Positions 2,097 to 36,979 of a stretch of 64,000 nucleotides of DNA are shown piece by piece. The stretch lies in sequence record OQ174501.1. One strand, given 5' to 3'. A program made the position numbers and the translations under genes. The notes under the pieces are model-generated. The model ran no database searches. It was given only the letters and a program-made list of their open reading frames with translations, and was not told the origin of the DNA. Each line of letters starts with the position of its first letter. The first letter of the stretch is position 1. This DNA comes from Escherichia phage REP2.

Positions 2097-2300
2097 ATGA
2101 AATCATATAAAGTAAATTTAGAACTTTTTGATAAAGCAGTTCATCGAGAATATAGAATCATTCAACGCTTTTTCGATATGGGAGAAGCCGAAGAATTTAA
2201 AAACCGCTTTAAGGATATTAGAGATAAAATTCAATCCGACACTGCAACTAAAGATGAACTACTAGAAGTTGCTGAAGTTATTAAACGCAATATGAATTAA
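2097..2300 (+). CDS. Small hypothetical protein (rIIA.1 position)
   Basis: 67-codon ORF between gene 39 and rIIA with RBS GAGGA upstream. Confidence 0.5.
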
Positions 2301-2310
2301 TGAGGAAATT

Positions 2311-4488
2311 ATGATTATCACCACTGAAAAAGAAACAATTCTTGGCAATGGTTCTAAATCAAAAGCATTTAGCATCACAGCATCTCCTAAAGTATTTAAA
2401 ATTCTGTCATCTGATTTGTATACAAACAAGATTCGTGCAGTAGTCCGTGAATTAATTACTAATATGATTGATGCCCATGCACTTAATGGAAATCCTGAAA
2501 AATTTATCATACAAGTTCCAGGACGATTAGATCCGCGATTTGTTTGTCGAGATTTTGGTCCGGGTATGAGTGATTTTGATATTCAGGGTGATGATAATTC
2601 TCCTGGGTTATATAATTCATACTTCAGTTCATCTAAGGCTGAATCTAATGACTTTATTGGCGGGTTTGGTTTAGGTTCTAAATCTCCGTTTAGTTATACT
2701 GATACATTTAGTATTACTTCGTATCATAAAGGTGAAATTCGTGGTTATGTAGCTTACATGGATGGTGATGGTCCACAGATTAAACCTACATTCGTAAAAG
2801 AAATGGGTCCAGATGATAAAACTGGTATTGAAATCGTAGTTCCAGTTGAAGAAAAAGACTTTAGAAACTTTGCTTATGAAGTTTCTTATATCATGCGACC
2901 ATTCAAAGATTTGGCTATCATTAATGGTCTTGACCGCGAAATTGATTATTTTCCGGATTTTGATGACTATTACGGTGTAAATCCAGAAAGATACTGGCCT
3001 GATCGTGGTGGATTATATGCTATCTATGGCGGTATTGTTTATCCTATCGATGGTGTTATTAGAGACCGTAACTGGCTAAGCATTCGCAATGAAGTGAATT
3101 ACATTAAGTTTCCAATGGGTTCACTTGATATTGCTCCATCTCGCGAGGCTCTTTCACTGGATGATCGTACTCGTAAAAATATTATTGAACGAGTTAAAGA
3201 ACTCAGTGAGAAAGCATTTAATGAAGATGTAAAACGATTTAAAGAATCCACATCTCCCCGTCATACATATCGTGAATTGATGAAGATGGGGTATTCTGCT
3301 CGAGATTATATGATTAGTAATTCAGTCAAATTTACGACTAAAAATCTGTCATATAAGAAGATGCAAAGCATGTTTGAACCTGATAGTAAGTTATGCAATG
3401 CAGGAGTTGTGTATGAAGTAAATCTTGACCCTCGACTGAAGCGCATTAAGCAAAGTCATGAAACTTCAGCCGTTGCATCAAGTTATCGTCTGTTTGGTAT
3501 TAATGCAACAAAAATTAATATCGTTATTGATAATATTAAAAATCGTGTTAATATTGTCCGTGGATTAGCACATGCGTTAGATGATAGTGAATTTAATAAC
3601 ACTTTGAATATTCATCACAACGAACGCCTTCTGTTTATTAATCCAGAAGTAGAATCGCAGATTGATTTGCTTCCTGATATTATGGCGATGTTTGAAAGTG
3701 ATGAAGTTAACATTCATTATTTGTCAGAAATTGAAGCTTTAGTTAAAAGCTATATTCCAAAGGTAGTTAAAAGTAAAGCTCCTCGTCCTAAAGCTGCTAC
3801 AGCATTTAAGTTTGAAATTAAAGACGGGCGCTGGGAAAAAGAGGAATTATTTACGCTCACATCAGAAGCAGATGAAATTACTGGGTATGTAGCGTATATG
3901 CATCGTTCTGATATTTTCTCTATGGATGGTACTACATCTCTTTGTCATCCATCTATGAATATTTTGATTCGTATGGCTAATCTTATTGGCATTAATGAGT
4001 TTTATGTTATTCGTCCGCTTTTGCAGAAAAAGGTAAAAGAACTCGGTCAGTGCCAATGTATTTTTGAAACTCTGCGTGATTTATATGTAGATGCTTTTGA
4101 TGATGTAGATTATGATAAGTACGTAGGTTATTCAAGTTCAGCTCAACGATATATTGATAAAATTATCAAGTATCCTGAACTAGATTTTATGATGAAGTAC
4201 TTCAGTACAGATGAAGTTTCTGAAGAATATACACGACTCGCTAATATAGTTAGTTCATTGCGCGGTGTATATTTTAATGGTGGAAAAGATACCATCGGTC
4301 ATGACATCTGGACAGTAACTAATCTTTTTGATGTATTATCAAATAATGCTTCAAAAAACAGTGATAAAATGGTTGCTGAGTTTACCAAGAAATTCCGTAT
4401 TGTTTCCGACTTCATCGGATATCGCAACTCTTTAAGTGATGATGAAGTTTCTCAAATCGCTAAAACTATGAAGGCCCTTGCGGCCTAA
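2311..4488 (+). CDS. rIIA: rIIA protein (membrane-associated, GHKL-like ATPase fold)
   Basis: 725 codons, same length as T4 rIIA; N-terminal region has GHKL-like motifs ([10 protein letters not shown] ... DFGPGM ... GGFGLGSKS); position matches. Confidence 0.9.
4473..4485 (+). other. Intercistronic hairpin GGCC-CTTGC-GGCC at rIIA 3' end
   Basis: 4-bp GC stem overlapping the last rIIA codons, just upstream of the rIIB RBS. Confidence 0.3.
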
Positions 4489-29550: not shown

Positions 29551-30411
29551 ATGAAACAATACCAAGATTTAATTAAAGACATTTTTGAAAATGGCTATGA
29601 AACCGATGACCGAACGGGCACAGGAACAATTGCTCTGTTCGGTACTAAATTGCGTTGGGATTTAACTAAAGGCTTTCCTGCAGTAACAACTAAAAAGCTC
29701 GCCTGGAATGCATGCATTGCTGAGCTAATATGGTTTTTATCAGGAAGCACAAATGTCAATGATTTACGATTAATTCAACATGATTCATTAATTCAAGGCA
29801 AAACAGTCTGGGATGAAAATTACGAAAATCAAGCAAAAGATTTAGGATACCATAGTGGTGAACTTGGTCCAATTTATGGAAAACAGTGGCGTGATTTTGG
29901 CGGTGTAGACCAAATTATAGAAGTTATTGATCGTATTAAAAAACTGCCAAATGATAGGCGTCAAATTGTTTCTGCATGGAATCCAGCTGAACTTAAATAT
30001 ATGGCATTACCGCCTTGTCATATGTTCTATCAGTTTAATGTGCGTAATGGCTATTTGGATTTGCAGTGGTATCAACGTTCGGTAGATGTTTTCCTCGGTC
30101 TTCCATTTAATATTGCATCATATGCTACGTTAGTTCATATTGTAGCTAAAATGTGTAATCTTATTCCTGGAGATTTGATATTTTCTGGTGGTAATACTCA
30201 TATCTATATGAATCACGTAGAACAATGTAAAGAAATTTTACGTCGTGAACCTATGGATTTATGCGAATTACAATTAAAATTTCCAGATGAATTTGATGAA
30301 TGGGACACAGAATCGCAGGTATTTTGGTTGAGTCAATTTGCAAAGCCTCATAATTTTGTTCTTAACAACTATGAATCACATCCTCCTATTAAAGGAAAGA
30401 TGGCGGTGTAA
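29551..30411 (+). CDS. td: Thymidylate synthase (uninterrupted, no intron)
   Basis: 286 codons as a single ORF, equal to the spliced T4 TS length; conserved TS motifs (RTGTGT, active-site PPCH). Confidence 0.9.
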
Positions 30412-30419
30412 TTTTATTA

Positions 30420-30695
30420 TTGCGAGGATATATGATTTTACGATTTAAAGATACTTCTGGTGTAGTTCTTTTTACACTTCCTAACCCAAGCGAGTTAGAA
30501 GTTCCAGGACCAAATCAGCCTATTATCATTTATGGCAAAAAATATTATACTCATAAAATGACCCGTGAGTATTTTGATAATAAAATTTCCACAGTTAAAA
30601 CTTCTTCTGACTGTTACTACGATATTACTGTTTTAACGGAAGAACAATATGAACACTTACAACCGCGCAGGCCGTATATGCCGAGTAGTGAATAA
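30420..30695 (+). CDS. Hypothetical protein (91 aa)
   Basis: ORF downstream of td. Confidence 0.45.
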
Positions 30696-30975
30696 ATACA
30701 AATCCGACTTTGATGTTAATATTCACCGCGGTACATTTTGGGGAAATTACGTCGGTAAAGATGCTGGCAGCCGAGAGGCTGCCATTGAATTATTCAAAAA
30801 AGATTTTATACGTCGAATTAAATCCGGAGAAATAACTAAAGCACATTTAGAGCCTTTACGTGGAATGAGGCTAGGATGCACATGTAAACCAAAGCCGTGT
30901 CATGGTGATATAATAGCTCATATAGTTAACCGATTGTTTAAAGACGATTTTCAAGTTGAGGACTTATGCAATTAA
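30649..30975 (+). CDS. DUF4326-like protein (108 aa)
   Basis: Motifs FWGNYVG...RE.A...F and [20 protein letters not shown] match the DUF4326 signature as I recall it; overlaps the previous ORF by 47 nt, so its start is uncertain. Confidence 0.4.
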
Positions 30976-32399
30976 TTAATGTTATCAAAAGTAGTGGTGT
31001 TTCTCAGAGCTTTGACCCGCAAAAAATTATTAAAGTTTTATCTTGGGCAGCTGAAGGAACATCTGTAGATCCTTATGAATTATATGAAAATATTAAATCA
31101 TATCTCCGTGATGGAATGACCACTGATGACATTCAGACTATTGTCATTAAGGCTGCTGCGAATTCTATTTCAGTTGAAGAGCCTGATTATCAATACGTAG
31201 CTGCACGCTGTTTAATGTTTGCTCTTCGTAAGCATGTTTACGGGCAATATGAACCACGTTCATTTATTGACCATATTTCTTACTGTGTAAATGAAGGTAA
31301 ATATGACCCCGAATTATTGTCAAAATATTCAGCAGAAGAAATTACATTTTTAGAATCAAAAATTAAGCACGAACGGGATATGGAATTTACTTATTCCGGG
31401 GCGATGCAATTAAAAGAAAAATATCTAGTTAAAGATAAAACCACTGGTCAAATTTATGAAACTCCACAGTTTGCATTTATGACTATTGGAATGGCATTGC
31501 ATCAAGATGAACCTGTTGATAGATTAAAACATGTTATTCGTTTTTATGAAGCAGTATCTACTCGACAGATTTCACTGCCAACTCCTATTATGGCTGGTTG
31601 CCGTACTCCGACTCGACAGTTCAGTTCATGCGTTGTTATTGAGGCAGGAGATTCATTGAAGTCTATCAATAAGGCTTCCGCTTCGATTGTTGAATATATC
31701 TCTAAACGCGCTGGAATTGGTATTAACGTTGGTATGATTCGTGCTGAAGGTTCTAAGATTGGCATGGGTGAAGTACGCCATACTGGTGTTATTCCTTTTT
31801 GGAAACATTTTCAGACTGCAGTTAAATCATGTTCACAGGGTGGAATTCGTGGCGGCGCTGCTACTGCTTATTATCCTATTTGGCATTTGGAAGTTGAAAA
31901 TCTTCTTGTTTTGAAAAATAACAAAGGCGTAGAAGAAAACCGCATTCGTCATATGGATTATGGTGTTCAACTGAATGATTTGATGATGGAACGTTTTGGA
32001 AAGAACGATTACATTACTTTGTTCAGTCCCCATGAAATGGGCGGAGAGCTTTATTATTCTTATTTTAAAGACCAAGACCGTTTCCGTGAATTGTATGAAG
32101 CCGCAGAAAAAGACCCTAATATTCGTAAAAAGCGTATTAAAGCTCGTGAACTATTTGAATTGCTCATGACTGAACGCTCAGGAACAGCAAGGATTTATGT
32201 ACAGTTCATTGATAATACGAATAACTATACTCCATTTATTCGTGAAAAGGCACCTATTCGTCAGAGTAACTTGTGCTGTGAAATTGCTATTCCAACAAAT
32301 GACGTGAATAGCCAACAAACCCGTTTAATCAAAATTAAGAAGTCGGATGTAGCTAAGTTTTATGAAGCTAATCCTGGCGGTATAATTCAAAGCAAATAA
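30966..32399 (+). CDS. nrdA: Ribonucleotide reductase alpha subunit, N-terminal piece (477 aa), truncated by insertion
   Basis: ATP-cone N-terminus and class I core up to the active-site segment SNLCCEIAIPTNDVN; then 29 unrelated codons and a stop. Confidence 0.85.
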   Translation: MQLINVIKSSGVSQSFDPQKIIKVLSWAAEGTSVDPYELYENIKSYLRDGMTTDDIQTIVIKAAANSISVEEPDYQYVAARCLMFALRKHVYGQYEPRSFIDHISYCVNEGKYDPELLSKYSAEEITFLESKIKHERDMEFTYSGAMQLKEKYLVKDKTTGQIYETPQFAFMTIGMALHQDEPVDRLKHVIRFYEAVSTRQISLPTPIMAGCRTPTRQFSSCVVIEAGDSLKSINKASASIVEYISKRAGIGINVGMIRAEGSKIGMGEVRHTGVIPFWKHFQTAVKSCSQGGIRGGAATAYYPIWHLEVENLLVLKNNKGVEENRIRHMDYGVQLNDLMMERFGKNDYITLFSPHEMGGELYYSYFKDQDRFRELYEAAEKDPNIRKKRIKARELFELLMTERSGTARIYVQFIDNTNNYTPFIREKAPIRQSNLCCEIAIPTNDVNSQQTRLIKIKKSDVAKFYEANPGGIIQSK

Positions 32400-33150
32400 A
32401 GTACACAGACCGTTAATAAATAATCCATAACAAGAGGAAAAGTTATGGATTATTCTAAAATTTACAATAACCTTATTTCTAAAGCTAAGAACAGAAAATT
32501 AGATTGCTATACCGAATCACACCATATTATACCTCTGTGTATTGGTGGTTCTGATACAAAGGAAAACCTGGTAGATTTGACACCCGAAGAGCATTACATA
32601 GCTCATCAATTATTAGTAAAGATATATCCAGATAATCATAAATTGGTATTTGCCGCTAATATGATGTGTGTTTATTCTGAAGATAATATTGAACGAAAGA
32701 ACACCAATAAACGCCATGGGTGGCTTAGAAGAAAATTGGCTATTTCTGTATCTGAAAATAATAAAGGCAAACCAGCTTGGAACAAAGGTATTCCGGTAAC
32801 TGACGAGCATAGAGAAAAACTTCAAACAACTTGGGTATTTACTTTCCCGGACGGTCATGAAGAAATCCATAAAGGCCTAAGAGAATTTTGCGAACTACAT
32901 TCACTCAATGCTTCGGCAATGTCGGCCGTATGCAAAGGCAAAAGGTCTCAACATAAAGGCTTTAAGTGTCGAAAGCTTGATAATATCTCTGAAAACGATA
33001 ATCAAGAATACGTCAGTAAACCTCATCCAAAGGGATTAAAACCCCATAACTTAATTGCTGTAAAAATAAACGGTATAGAATATCAATCAATACATCGAGC
33101 ATCTAAAGCTCTAGGAATATCTCGAAAAAAGGTAGAAGAATTAAATGAAT
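32310..33150 (+). mobile_element. Homing-endonuclease gene insertion splitting nrdA (about 0.84 kb)
   Basis: Segment between the last conserved NrdA codon (about 32309) and resumption of NrdA-like sequence (about 33151) carries only a free-standing HNH endonuclease ORF. Confidence 0.5.
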
Positions 33151-33155
33151 ATTGA
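32445..33155 (+). CDS. HNH homing endonuclease (Mob-like, HNH plus NUMOD/HTH modules)
   Basis: N-terminal HNH motif (ESHHIIPLCIGGSDTKENLVDLTPEEHYIAH), NUMOD3-like KPAWNKGIPVTDEHREKL, C-terminal HTH-like segment; own RBS AAGAGGAAAAG. Confidence 0.8.
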   Translation: MDYSKIYNNLISKAKNRKLDCYTESHHIIPLCIGGSDTKENLVDLTPEEHYIAHQLLVKIYPDNHKLVFAANMMCVYSEDNIERKNTNKRHGWLRRKLAISVSENNKGKPAWNKGIPVTDEHREKLQTTWVFTFPDGHEEIHKGLREFCELHSLNASAMSAVCKGKRSQHKGFKCRKLDNISENDNQEYVSKPHPKGLKPHNLIAVKINGIEYQSIHRASKALGISRKKVEELNEY

Positions 33156-34134
33156 TTATGAATTTGTAGATGAATTTTACGAAGATGATGAGTATACAAC
33201 AATACAAGTTATTGAAAACAAAGGTGAAGTGGGCCTCTGTACTCTCTCTGCATTCGTACTGGATAATTTTGACTGGCAAGACCAAGATAAAATTAATGAA
33301 TTGGCAGAAGTCCAGGTTCGTGCTCTTGATAATCTTTTGGATTACCAAGGATATCCAGTTCCTGAAGCAGAAAAAGCTAAAAAGCGTCGTAACCTCGGTG
33401 TAGGTGTTACTAACTATGCAGCTTGGTTGGCAAGTAACTTTGCTTCTTATGAAGATGCTAACGATTTAACACATGAACTATTTGAGAGATTACAGTATGG
33501 ACTCATTAAAGCATCCATTAAACTCGCCAAAGAAAAAGGACCTTGTGAATATTATTCAGACACTCGTTGGTCTCGAGGCGAATTACCTATCGACTGGTAC
33601 AATAAAAAGATTGACCAAATCGCAGCTCCAAAATACGTTTGTGACTGGTCGTCGCTGCGGGAAGACCTTAAGCTCTTTGGCATCCGTAATAGCACATTAT
33701 CAGCACTTATGCCATGTGAGTCATCTTCCCAAGTTTCTAACAGTACAAACGGTATCGAGCCTCCACGTGGACCAGTCTCTGTTAAAGAATCAAAAGAGGG
33801 CTCCTTTAATCAAGTCGTGCCCAATATTGAGCATAACATAGACCTTTATGATTATACATGGAAATTAGCTAAGAAAGGTAATAAACCTTATCTTACGCAG
33901 GTAGCTATTATGCTGAAATGGGTTTGTCAATCAGCTTCGGCGAATACATACTATGACCCCCAAATCTTCCCTAAAGGCAAGGTTCCAATGTCAATAATGA
34001 TTGATGACCTTTTGTATTTCTGGTATTTTGGCGGAAAAAATTTCTATTATCATAATACCCGTGACGGTTCTGGTACTGATGATTATGAAATAGAAACTCC
34101 AAAAGCTGAAGATTGTTCATCCTGTAAATTATGA
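33145..34134 (+). CDS. nrdA: Ribonucleotide reductase alpha subunit, C-terminal piece (329 aa)
   Basis: Begins MNIDYEFVDEF... and continues with GEVGLCTLSAF and the conserved C-terminal CxxC tail; ATG overlaps the endonuclease stop. Confidence 0.85.
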   Translation: MNIDYEFVDEFYEDDEYTTIQVIENKGEVGLCTLSAFVLDNFDWQDQDKINELAEVQVRALDNLLDYQGYPVPEAEKAKKRRNLGVGVTNYAAWLASNFASYEDANDLTHELFERLQYGLIKASIKLAKEKGPCEYYSDTRWSRGELPIDWYNKKIDQIAAPKYVCDWSSLREDLKLFGIRNSTLSALMPCESSSQVSNSTNGIEPPRGPVSVKESKEGSFNQVVPNIEHNIDLYDYTWKLAKKGNKPYLTQVAIMLKWVCQSASANTYYDPQIFPKGKVPMSIMIDDLLYFWYFGGKNFYYHNTRDGSGTDDYEIETPKAEDCSSCKL

Positions 34135-34185
34135 TATAATTTGACTCACGGACGAGTCACCAACTATTAACTAAGCGGAAAATTT

Positions 34186-35364
34186 ATGAGCACAGTTTTT
34201 AATACAAATCCAGTTGATGTTTTAAAAGAACCTATGTTTTTTGGTTCAGGTCTTGGTATTGCGCGTTATGATATTCAACGTCATAAAGTTTTTGAAGATT
34301 TAACCGAAAAGCAGTTGTCATTTTTCTGGCGTCCTGAAGAAGTAAACTTAATGATGGATGCTGCACAGTTTAATAAGCTTCCTCAATATCAGCAGAATAT
34401 TTTTACTAATAATCTGAAGTATCAATCACTTCTGGATAGCATTCAGGGTCGTGCACCGTCTGCTGTACTTATGTCGTTAATTTCAGACCCAAGTCTTGAT
34501 ACATGGGTTGCTACATGGACTTTTAGTGAAACTATTCACAGTCGTTCATACACTCATATTATGCGAAATCTTTATACTGATCCGTCAAAGGTATTTGATG
34601 AGATTGTATTAGATAAAGCTATCATGAAACGTGCTGAATCTATTGGTCGTTATTATGATGATGTTCTGGTTAAGACGCGCGAATGGGAAAATGCAAAAGA
34701 AATTTTTAAATGTTTTTCCGAAAATGAATATGATTTAGATGCATATTCAAATAGTCTTATGCATGTGGAAGAATGTAAATATGCATTGATGAAGTCGCTT
34801 TATCTCTGCCTTCATGTTATCAATGCCCTGGAAGCTATTCGTTTTTATGTATCCTTTGCATGTACTTTCAACTTCCATAAAAATATGGAAATCATGGAAG
34901 GTAATGCGAAGATTATGAAATTCATTGCTCGAGACGAACAACTCCACCTTAAAGGCACCCAGTATATTATTCGTCAGCTCCAACTTGGCACTGATGGTGA
35001 TGAATGGGTTAAAATTGCCAAAGAGTGTGAACAAGAAGCAGTTGATATTTTCATGGAAGTTAACCGCCAAGAAAAAGATTGGGCAGTTCATTTATTTAAA
35101 GATGGCGATGTTCCTGGATTAAATACAAATAGCATGTGGAGCTTTATTGATTACTTAACTGTGTCTCGTATGAAACAGTGTGGTCTTCCATGTCCAATTA
35201 CCGATGCTCCGGTTAAACATCCATATCCTTGGATTCGTGAATACCTTAATTCTGATAATGTTCAATCCGCGCCGCAAGAAGTAGAACTGTCATCTTATCT
35301 TGTTGCACAGATTGATAATGATGTTGATGATAAAGTTATGATGAGTTTTAAAAAATATTTTTAA
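34186..35364 (+). CDS. nrdB: Ribonucleotide reductase beta subunit (uninterrupted, no intron)
   Basis: 392 codons as a single ORF with ferritin-like R2 motifs; T4 NrdB about 388 aa after splicing. Confidence 0.9.
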   Translation: MSTVFNTNPVDVLKEPMFFGSGLGIARYDIQRHKVFEDLTEKQLSFFWRPEEVNLMMDAAQFNKLPQYQQNIFTNNLKYQSLLDSIQGRAPSAVLMSLISDPSLDTWVATWTFSETIHSRSYTHIMRNLYTDPSKVFDEIVLDKAIMKRAESIGRYYDDVLVKTREWENAKEIFKCFSENEYDLDAYSNSLMHVEECKYALMKSLYLCLHVINALEAIRFYVSFACTFNFHKNMEIMEGNAKIMKFIARDEQLHLKGTQYIIRQLQLGTDGDEWVKIAKECEQEAVDIFMEVNRQEKDWAVHLFKDGDVPGLNTNSMWSFIDYLTVSRMKQCGLPCPITDAPVKHPYPWIREYLNSDNVQSAPQEVELSSYLVAQIDNDVDDKVMMSFKKYF

Positions 35365-35368
35365 GGAG

Positions 35369-35384
35369 TGGGCCGCAAGGCCCA
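35369..35384 (+). other. Hairpin TGGGCC-GCAA-GGCCCA between the denA SD and start codon
   Basis: Perfect 6-bp stem with GCAA loop; GGAG at 35365-35368 lies 5' of it and the ATG at 35392 lies 3' of it. Confidence 0.55.
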
Positions 35385-35391
35385 TTTTATT

Positions 35392-36979
<1,588 letters not shown>

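Follow-up and report, generated by a model that had tools for sequence, protein, structure and literature searches.

The nrdA locus of Escherichia phage REP2 (sequence record OQ174501.1) raises the question of how a gene for ribonucleotide reductase (RNR) may be interrupted in its active-site region by a free-standing HNH homing endonuclease gene and still yield a working enzyme. We analysed a stretch of 64,000 nucleotides (nt) of this phage (the window, to which all coordinates refer), of which positions 30966-34134, holding the interrupted gene, are 100% identical to Escherichia phage REP3 (Tequatrovirus, OQ174502.1); the name REP3 is used below for the window sequence. Our reading, to which we assign a probability of roughly 0.85, is that REP3 nrdA holds a site-specific homing cassette of the MobE-split type and that the separately made halves of NrdA assemble non-covalently, through tails encoded by the cassette, into an active RNR.

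Results

Inspection of the open reading frame (ORF) list and the raw sequence located three ORFs, nrdA-a, the HNH gene and nrdA-b, exactly where the first-pass annotation had placed them when it described nrdA as two ORFs with an HNH gene between. The features of the locus, with protein lengths in amino acids (aa), are the following.

30966..32399, plus strand: nrdA-a, 477 aa, 54.5 kDa; native residues 1-449, a 28-aa basic tail and a TAA stop
32313..32396, plus strand: the basic tail of NrdA-a (a-tail, CTE), QQTRLIKIKKSDVAKFYEANPGGIIQSK; net charge +4, isoelectric point (pI) 10.0; left end of the cassette, junction placed by alignment
32400..32444, plus strand: 45-nt spacer with AGTACACAG (32400-32408), the late-promoter-like AATAAATA (32415-32422) and a GAGG Shine-Dalgarno sequence (32434-32437)
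32419..32454, plus strand: RNA hairpin (predicted fold) with a perfect 13-bp stem, AAUAAUCCAUAAC / GUUAUGGAUUAUU
32445..33155, plus strand: free-standing HNH homing endonuclease gene of the MobE-split type, 236 aa, with GAGG upstream
33145..34134, plus strand: nrdA-b, 329 aa, 37.7 kDa; a 26-aa acidic tail, then the second half of the barrel
33145..33222, plus strand: the acidic tail of NrdA-b (b-tail, NTE), MNIDYEFVDEFYEDDEYTTIQVIENK; net charge -8, pI 4.1
33223..33237, plus strand: recoded nrdA codons at the right end of the cassette, placed by alignment to the intact allele; candidate for target-site self-immunity

The 236-aa HNH ORF had been credited with its own ribosome-binding site, which is the GAGG sequence at 32434-32437, and the reported overlap of the nrdA-b ATG with the endonuclease stop is also real, the ATG lying 11 nt inside the 3' end of the HNH ORF. 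By Pfam comparison, the ATP-cone, the all-alpha domain and barrel positions 1-221 reside in nrdA-a and barrel positions 219-523 in nrdA-b. Every catalytic residue is kept, with C222, N435, C437 and E439 in NrdA-a and C32, Y269/Y270 and the C-terminal C324/C327 in NrdA-b.

The junction was defined, as the first-pass annotation had proposed, by alignment to an intact T-even NrdA, for which we took the uninterrupted 754-codon nrdA of phage G157lw, whose flanks are 98.7% identical to REP3. The two sequences part after the Ser449 codon (...PTNDVNS) and rejoin at ...GLCTLSAF, giving a net insertion of 904 nt in REP3 nrdA. Because the divergence begins after Ser449 and nucleotides at the right edge are recoded, the foreign segment is taken to run from 32313 to approximately 33236 (about 910-924 nt), and the earlier estimate of about 0.84 kb for the insert was therefore too low. 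The insert adds 28 codons to NrdA-a, rather than the 29 counted before, since the Ser of DVNS is common to the intact gene, and 26 to NrdA-b. The suggestion that the break adjoins the active-site cysteine region was borne out: within the RNR barrel the insertion separates the strand with the N435/C437/E439 motif from that with the partner cysteine (Cys32 of NrdA-b).

At the right edge, REP3 reads GGT GAA GTG GGC CTC where G157lw reads GCT GAA ATT GGA TTG, which amounts to six differences in 15 nt adjoining flanks that are about 99% identical between the two phages. The first 14 nt of the recoded stretch are also present in the Mosigvirus copy described below. Our guess is that this recoded junction (33223-33237) might confer self-immunity on the target site.

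The two tails were examined in ten cassettes, comprising those of REP3 and Aeromonas phage Aeh1 and eight metagenomic copies (L013-L020), two of which are cut by a contig end. A search of approximately 5.8 billion proteins had returned full-length HNH orthologues at 51-67% identity, and all eight of the metagenomic orthologues examined sit between nrdA-a and nrdA-b ORFs at the same nrdA site with the tail motifs kept. The CTE reads L-IKIKKSDVAKF in REP3 and LFKVKKSEVDKF in Aeh1, while the NTE reads YEDDEYTTIQV and YEDEEYTTVEI, respectively. The spacing of the motifs is identical in these two phages, at nine residues from PT to the LxK motif and 11 from EYTT to LCTL. Across the ten cassettes the consensus of the CTE is L-x-K-(I/V)-(K/R)-K-x-(D/E)-(V/I)-x-x-F, in which L, K, K and F are invariant, and that of the NTE is Y-E-x-V-x-x-x-Y-E-D-(D/E)-E-Y-T-T. 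Net charge is likewise preserved in 10/10 cassettes (CTE +4 to +7, NTE -7 to -13). Invariant tail residues use two to six synonymous codons, the invariant Leu using six, and the pooled ratio of non-synonymous to synonymous change (pN/pS) is 0.43-0.48 for the tails and 0.46 for the adjoining native NrdA segments, values that are only rough because synonymous sites among such diverged cassettes are saturated (pS about 0.75). Given this conservation of motifs, charge, synonymous codon use and pN/pS, the tails appear to be translated and constrained as protein.

The spacer and the start of the HNH gene are predicted to fold into the hairpin at 32419-32454, whose 3' arm contains the HNH AUG and whose loop contains the Shine-Dalgarno sequence. 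Folding of 32370-32470 (101 nt, including a second small stem) gave -19.2 kcal/mol with z = -3.8, and a hairpin-only fold of 32380-32475 gave -13.8 kcal/mol. A hairpin over the AUG or the ribosome-binding site is predicted in 10/10 cassettes, and the six that have the REP3-type stem display three compensatory pairs and no one-sided changes, with 96% of cells paired. The 5' arm overlaps a T4 late-promoter box, which is the perfect TATAAATA in three cassettes and AATAAATA, with one mismatch, in REP3. A scan for sigma-70 promoters and terminators returned sites no more frequently than in shuffled sequence. In the design described for I-TevI and for Aeh1 mobE, the endonuclease is not translated from read-through transcripts and late transcription begins within the hairpin (PMC2988022), and the REP3 hairpin is, by analogy, predicted to repress HNH translation on read-through transcripts. 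Separately, a motif close to GTGTACA(C/T)A(G/A) lies directly 3' of the nrdA-a stop in 9/10 cassettes (AGTACACAG in REP3), being weaker in Aeh1; its role could lie in RNA processing or in protein binding.

The HNH protein comprises a candidate HNH motif (residues 21-54), an I-HmuI NUMOD-like domain (135-173) and a weak NUMOD1/I-TevI-type DNA-binding match (196-230). This candidate motif, SHHIIPLCIGGSDTKENLVDLTPEEHYIAH, aligns to the McrA HNH domain (6ghc) with E 0.0035; the Pfam HNH score of 17.9 bits is under the 21.4 cut-off, while a NUMOD-type DNA-binding module (PF22083) scores 32.2 bits against a cut-off of 27 and PHROG 655 'homing endonuclease' matches with E 3e-60. In BLASTP the protein is 48% identical to Aeh1 MobE over 229 aa, which is full length (E 3e-61), and this is its only full-length non-coliphage match in the phage collection; intergenic-type homologues match only the N-terminal 100-130 residues or so, at approximately 43-50% identity.

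A second HNH allele, with 89% amino acid identity to REP3, is carried by phages e11/2 and FL33, whose flanks are 96-98% identical to those of REP3. The two coliphage alleles are near-identical at both ends and only 68-72% identical in the block 32800-33000 (approximately residues 119-185), which covers the NUMOD-like DNA-binding region; this block may reflect recombination with another mob gene or a shifted DNA-binding specificity. In phage F2 the two alleles have recombined.

The cassette is present in 34 GenBank/RefSeq records, representing 27 distinct phages (Escherichia, Shigella, Yersinia and Salmonella), out of 837 records with an nrdA match, that is, in about 4% of T4-like records with such a match. 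A sequencing artefact was accordingly rejected as the cause of the split, since the arrangement is identical in all 34 records. REP3 was aligned with five other carriers and identity was measured per segment. In Mosigvirus AV111 the 910-nt insert is 99.9% identical to that of REP3, whereas nrdA-a is 76.8% and nrdA-b 78.6% identical, with sharp transitions at about 32300 on the left and at 33237 on the right; an insert so much more similar than its flanks (77-79%) indicates recent homing between the genera Tequatrovirus and Mosigvirus. Close relatives have an intact nrdA. The flanks of one metagenomic carrier match a Klebsiella phage at 99.3% identity, and the nrdA of that phage is annotated as a single full-length gene; another carrier is nearest to Erwinia T4-like phages. 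Read from the sequences, this distribution and these segment identities are the signature of a homing element and not of a single ancestral accident.

The first-pass annotation knew of no such arrangement in coliphage T-evens, which the frequency given above corrects. The arrangement is already annotated in GenBank records, the e11/2 record naming the ORF MobE, and a 2022 preprint mentions split cases in 'Aeh1 and several others' (bioRxiv 10.1101/2022.08.31.505936). Our literature search found no paper formally describing the coliphage split nrdA.

As regards the surrounding operon, td (29551-30411) and nrdB (34186-35364) of REP3 are uninterrupted, and the phage therefore lacks the T4-type introns of these genes. 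Only 51 nt (34135-34185), with no ORF, separate nrdA-b from nrdB, and the canonical intergenic mobE is thus absent as well; the split-type cassette is the sole mobile element of the REP3 td-nrdA-nrdB operon. A permissive Rfam scan (E <= 1) detected no group I or group II intron in 30000-36000. The sole match of that scan, an L20 leader at 35273-35399 (E 0.076; 25.8 bits against a gathering score of 58.7), was dismissed as chance.

Two metagenomic carriers have an extra ORF between nrdA-b and nrdB. That of L013 (4169-4810, 213 aa) has a faint NUMOD3 match and may be an endonuclease; Pfam returned nothing for that of L016 (2219-2995, 258 aa). Should the L013 ORF prove to be a mob gene of the intergenic type, split-type and intergenic-type elements can coexist in one operon. 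Upstream, a 108-aa ORF (30649-30975) overlaps the nrdA start by 10 nt; the annotation of its equivalent in G157lw notes similarity to a 12.4-kDa T4 protein from the region between nrdA and td, and the gene at this position in four related loci (L013, L015, L019 and L020) matches Pfam DUF4326.

Discussion

An nrdA-a / mobE / nrdA-b arrangement in Aeh1 was reportedly described by Friedrich et al. in PNAS in 2007. The comparable Aeromonas split brought up by the first-pass annotation proves to be a true homologue of the REP3 locus: the insertion codon is the same in both, the endonucleases are orthologous (48%, E 3e-61) and the tails are homologous. Its products measure 473, 237 and 323 aa, with a 46-nt spacer and a 14-nt overlap, as against 477, 236 and 329 aa, 45 nt and 11 nt in REP3. 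In both phages the insertion lies between the strands equivalent to N437/C439/E441 and C462 (E. coli numbering), that is, between the C439/E441 and C462 equivalents; both have an orthologous HNH gene, a basic CTE, an acidic NTE, an nrdA-b start inside the 3' end of the HNH gene, and a short spacer in which a hairpin prevents translation of the HNH gene (predicted in REP3).

The two loci differ in their setting and in the detail of the hairpin. REP3 nrdA lies in the canonical td-nrdA-nrdB-denA block, whereas the Aeh1 nrdAB operon is at 40-45 kb, away from td, which is followed there by nrdA.1 and denA. The AT-rich stem of REP3 occludes the AUG, while the GC-rich stem of Aeh1 occludes the Shine-Dalgarno sequence. 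In Aeh1, NrdA consists of two polypeptides made separately, with a basic a-tail and an acidic b-tail (Crona et al. 2010 NAR, PMC3045599); without the tails RNR activity is about 2000-fold lower, apparently from blocked dimerisation of the a/b heterodimer, and the authors' database searches with the tails gave no matches (PMC3045599). The coliphage split nrdA is a relative of this studied case and reveals no new mechanism.

On the model favoured here, the cassette unit would run from the CTE codons with their stop through the 45-nt regulatory spacer and the HNH gene to the NTE codons and about 15 recoded bases of nrdA. In read-through transcripts of the early and middle periods the 13-bp hairpin would lock the HNH start codon, and late transcripts from the TATAAATA-like box in the 5' arm, being unable to form the hairpin, would permit HNH translation. 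NrdA-a and NrdA-b would then associate non-covalently, the basic CTE and the acidic NTE being required for an active (NrdA-a/NrdA-b)2-NrdB2 enzyme; the two oppositely charged tails most likely let the halves reassemble. The phage would pay little for the insertion because the tails would build an active enzyme. In a mixed infection, the nuclease would cut a cassette-free nrdA and repair would copy the whole cassette, tails included, while the recoded right junction may shield the carrier from cutting. The near-identity of the insert in REP3 and AV111, set in much less similar flanks, is indirect support for such conversion. The sequences themselves show the anatomy of the cassette, its homology, the conservation of tails and hairpin, and horizontal spread; for REP3 we infer separate translation of the halves, their assembly, enzyme activity and cleavage of DNA.

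Several points weigh against this model of a functional split enzyme. An exact search for TATAAATA returned none at the REP3 HNH gene, and the saturation noted above leaves pN/pS as a rough guide to constraint on the tails. Cleavage by T4 MobE occurs away from the gene that encodes it, and both the cleavage site in nrdA and a role of the junction in immunity are guesses modelled on MobA. Phage T4 nrdA is, furthermore, dispensable in laboratory hosts, and therefore intact ORFs alone are no proof of an active split enzyme.

This last point lends some support to the best-surviving alternative, namely that the insertion inactivated nrdA, leaving a decaying pseudogene in a phage that uses host NrdAB or its own anaerobic NrdDG. 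The separation of the active-site cysteines onto two polypeptides would fit such a loss. However, six aligned coliphage copies, Aeh1 and eight metagenomic copies all keep two intact ORFs with every catalytic residue, the tails are conserved as amino acids with synonymous codon variation, and the homologous Aeh1 enzyme is fully active (PMC3045599); we consider decay improbable.

Still less probable, in our judgement, is that the tails are the halves of a split intein, perhaps degenerate, and that the NrdA pieces are ligated by protein trans-splicing. The idea has a precedent nearby, as nrdA of Yersinia phage TG1 is interrupted only 12 codons upstream by a true split intein and a free-standing HNH gene, and a degenerate intein was considered by Crona et al. 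as a source of the Aeh1 tails (PMC3045599). The tails, however, total 54 aa, which is far below the size of a HINT domain, and neither the halves nor the isolated tails have an intein match in Pfam, even at E = 10. An hhalign comparison of the NTE profile with the TG1 C-intein gave a probability of 0.2%. No Cys, Ser or Thr nucleophile is present at the start of the CTE (Gln) or after the NTE (+1 Gly), and the Aeh1 tails persist in the mature proteins (PMC3045599). These comparisons lend no support to an intein origin of the tails, although an ancient one is conceivable.

The weakest alternative, a group I intron with a homing endonuclease gene, as in T4 td, nrdB and nrdD, whose splicing from the RNA would give a single NrdA, draws on the frequency of such introns in T-even nucleotide-metabolism genes (PMC2988022) but is scarcely credible given that no Rfam intron model was found in 30000-36000, that the non-coding part of the insert is only 45 nt, that the sequences flanking the HNH ORF are conserved as protein and not as RNA structure, and that mature Aeh1 proteins contain peptides of both tails (PMC3045599). 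The earlier preference for genes in pieces over splicing is upheld by the same Rfam scan, by the 45 nt of non-coding sequence and by the want of an intein signature in the tails.

The case for a MobE-split cassette with tail-mediated assembly is also informed by other known systems. Canonical T4 mobE is of the same HNH family and is found in the same RNR operon (PMC2790892, PMC2988022), but is intergenic (nrdA/nrdB), splits no gene and does not share the C-terminal DNA-binding half. MobA of T4 39/60 resembles the REP3 cassette in that its HNH gene lies out of frame between a CTE and an NTE added to the two parts of an essential enzyme, that the target region is present in a short, recoded copy at the NTE side and that the element is sporadic among related phages (bioRxiv 10.1101/2022.08.31.505936). 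It differs in its target gene (topoisomerase 39/60) and in that MobA elements also have a 50-nt translational bypass; no sequence similarity was found between the MobA tails and the REP3-type tails.

Fractured genes in which split inteins accompany a free-standing HNH gene have been described (Dassa et al. 2009, PMC2677866). In TG1 (KP202158.1 137300-141600; L021) the order is likewise N-half, stop, HNH gene and C-half, with nrdA broken near the active site; on the minus strand of that segment nrdA-a occupies 2282-3880, the HNH gene 1284-2234 (316 aa) and nrdA-b 233-1297. The break is at the catalytic Cys, the N-half ending CLSGESVVEIK...TPDH... and the C-half beginning ...VYDITVEDTHCFFADDILVHN directly before CAEIAIPT. 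Unlike the short charged tails of REP3, which have no splicing motifs, the TG1 extensions can be recognised as the N and C halves of an intein whose Cys+1 falls at the catalytic cysteine, and the TG1 halves are thus presumably ligated covalently. TG1 and REP3 represent two ways to cope with an HNH insertion in the same active-site loop. In the metagenomic carrier L017 (ERZ14207129), nrdA-a (607-2451) measures 614 aa because it contains a complete intein (Pfam PT-HINT / Intein_splicing) at the catalytic Cys, with the MobE-split cassette 12 codons downstream, placing two mobile elements in one loop.

Conclusions

The Aeh1 split RNR has so far been treated as a one-off curiosity and read as a one-off transposition; the coliphage and metagenomic copies alter this picture, the coliphage copies showing that the cassette is a homing element which recurs and passes from one genus to another. 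Endonuclease, tails and regulatory hairpin move together as one conserved unit in at least five lineages of T4-like phages, which supports the idea that a homing element can bring its own repair for the gene that it breaks. The system is now available in phages of E. coli, where homing crosses, tail swaps and RNR assays are straightforward. A broader proposal, to which we give even odds, is that the CTE and NTE constitute a transferable module for non-covalent protein complementation, carried by one HNH homing family whose natural home is the nrdA coding sequence, so that Aeh1 would be no accident. If this is true, MobA in gp39/gp60 would be a second instance, and the coliphage copies would allow the proposal to be tested for the first time in a genetically tractable system. 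Charged-tail cassettes would then stand beside introns and inteins as a third general class of elements that invade essential coding sequence almost silently.

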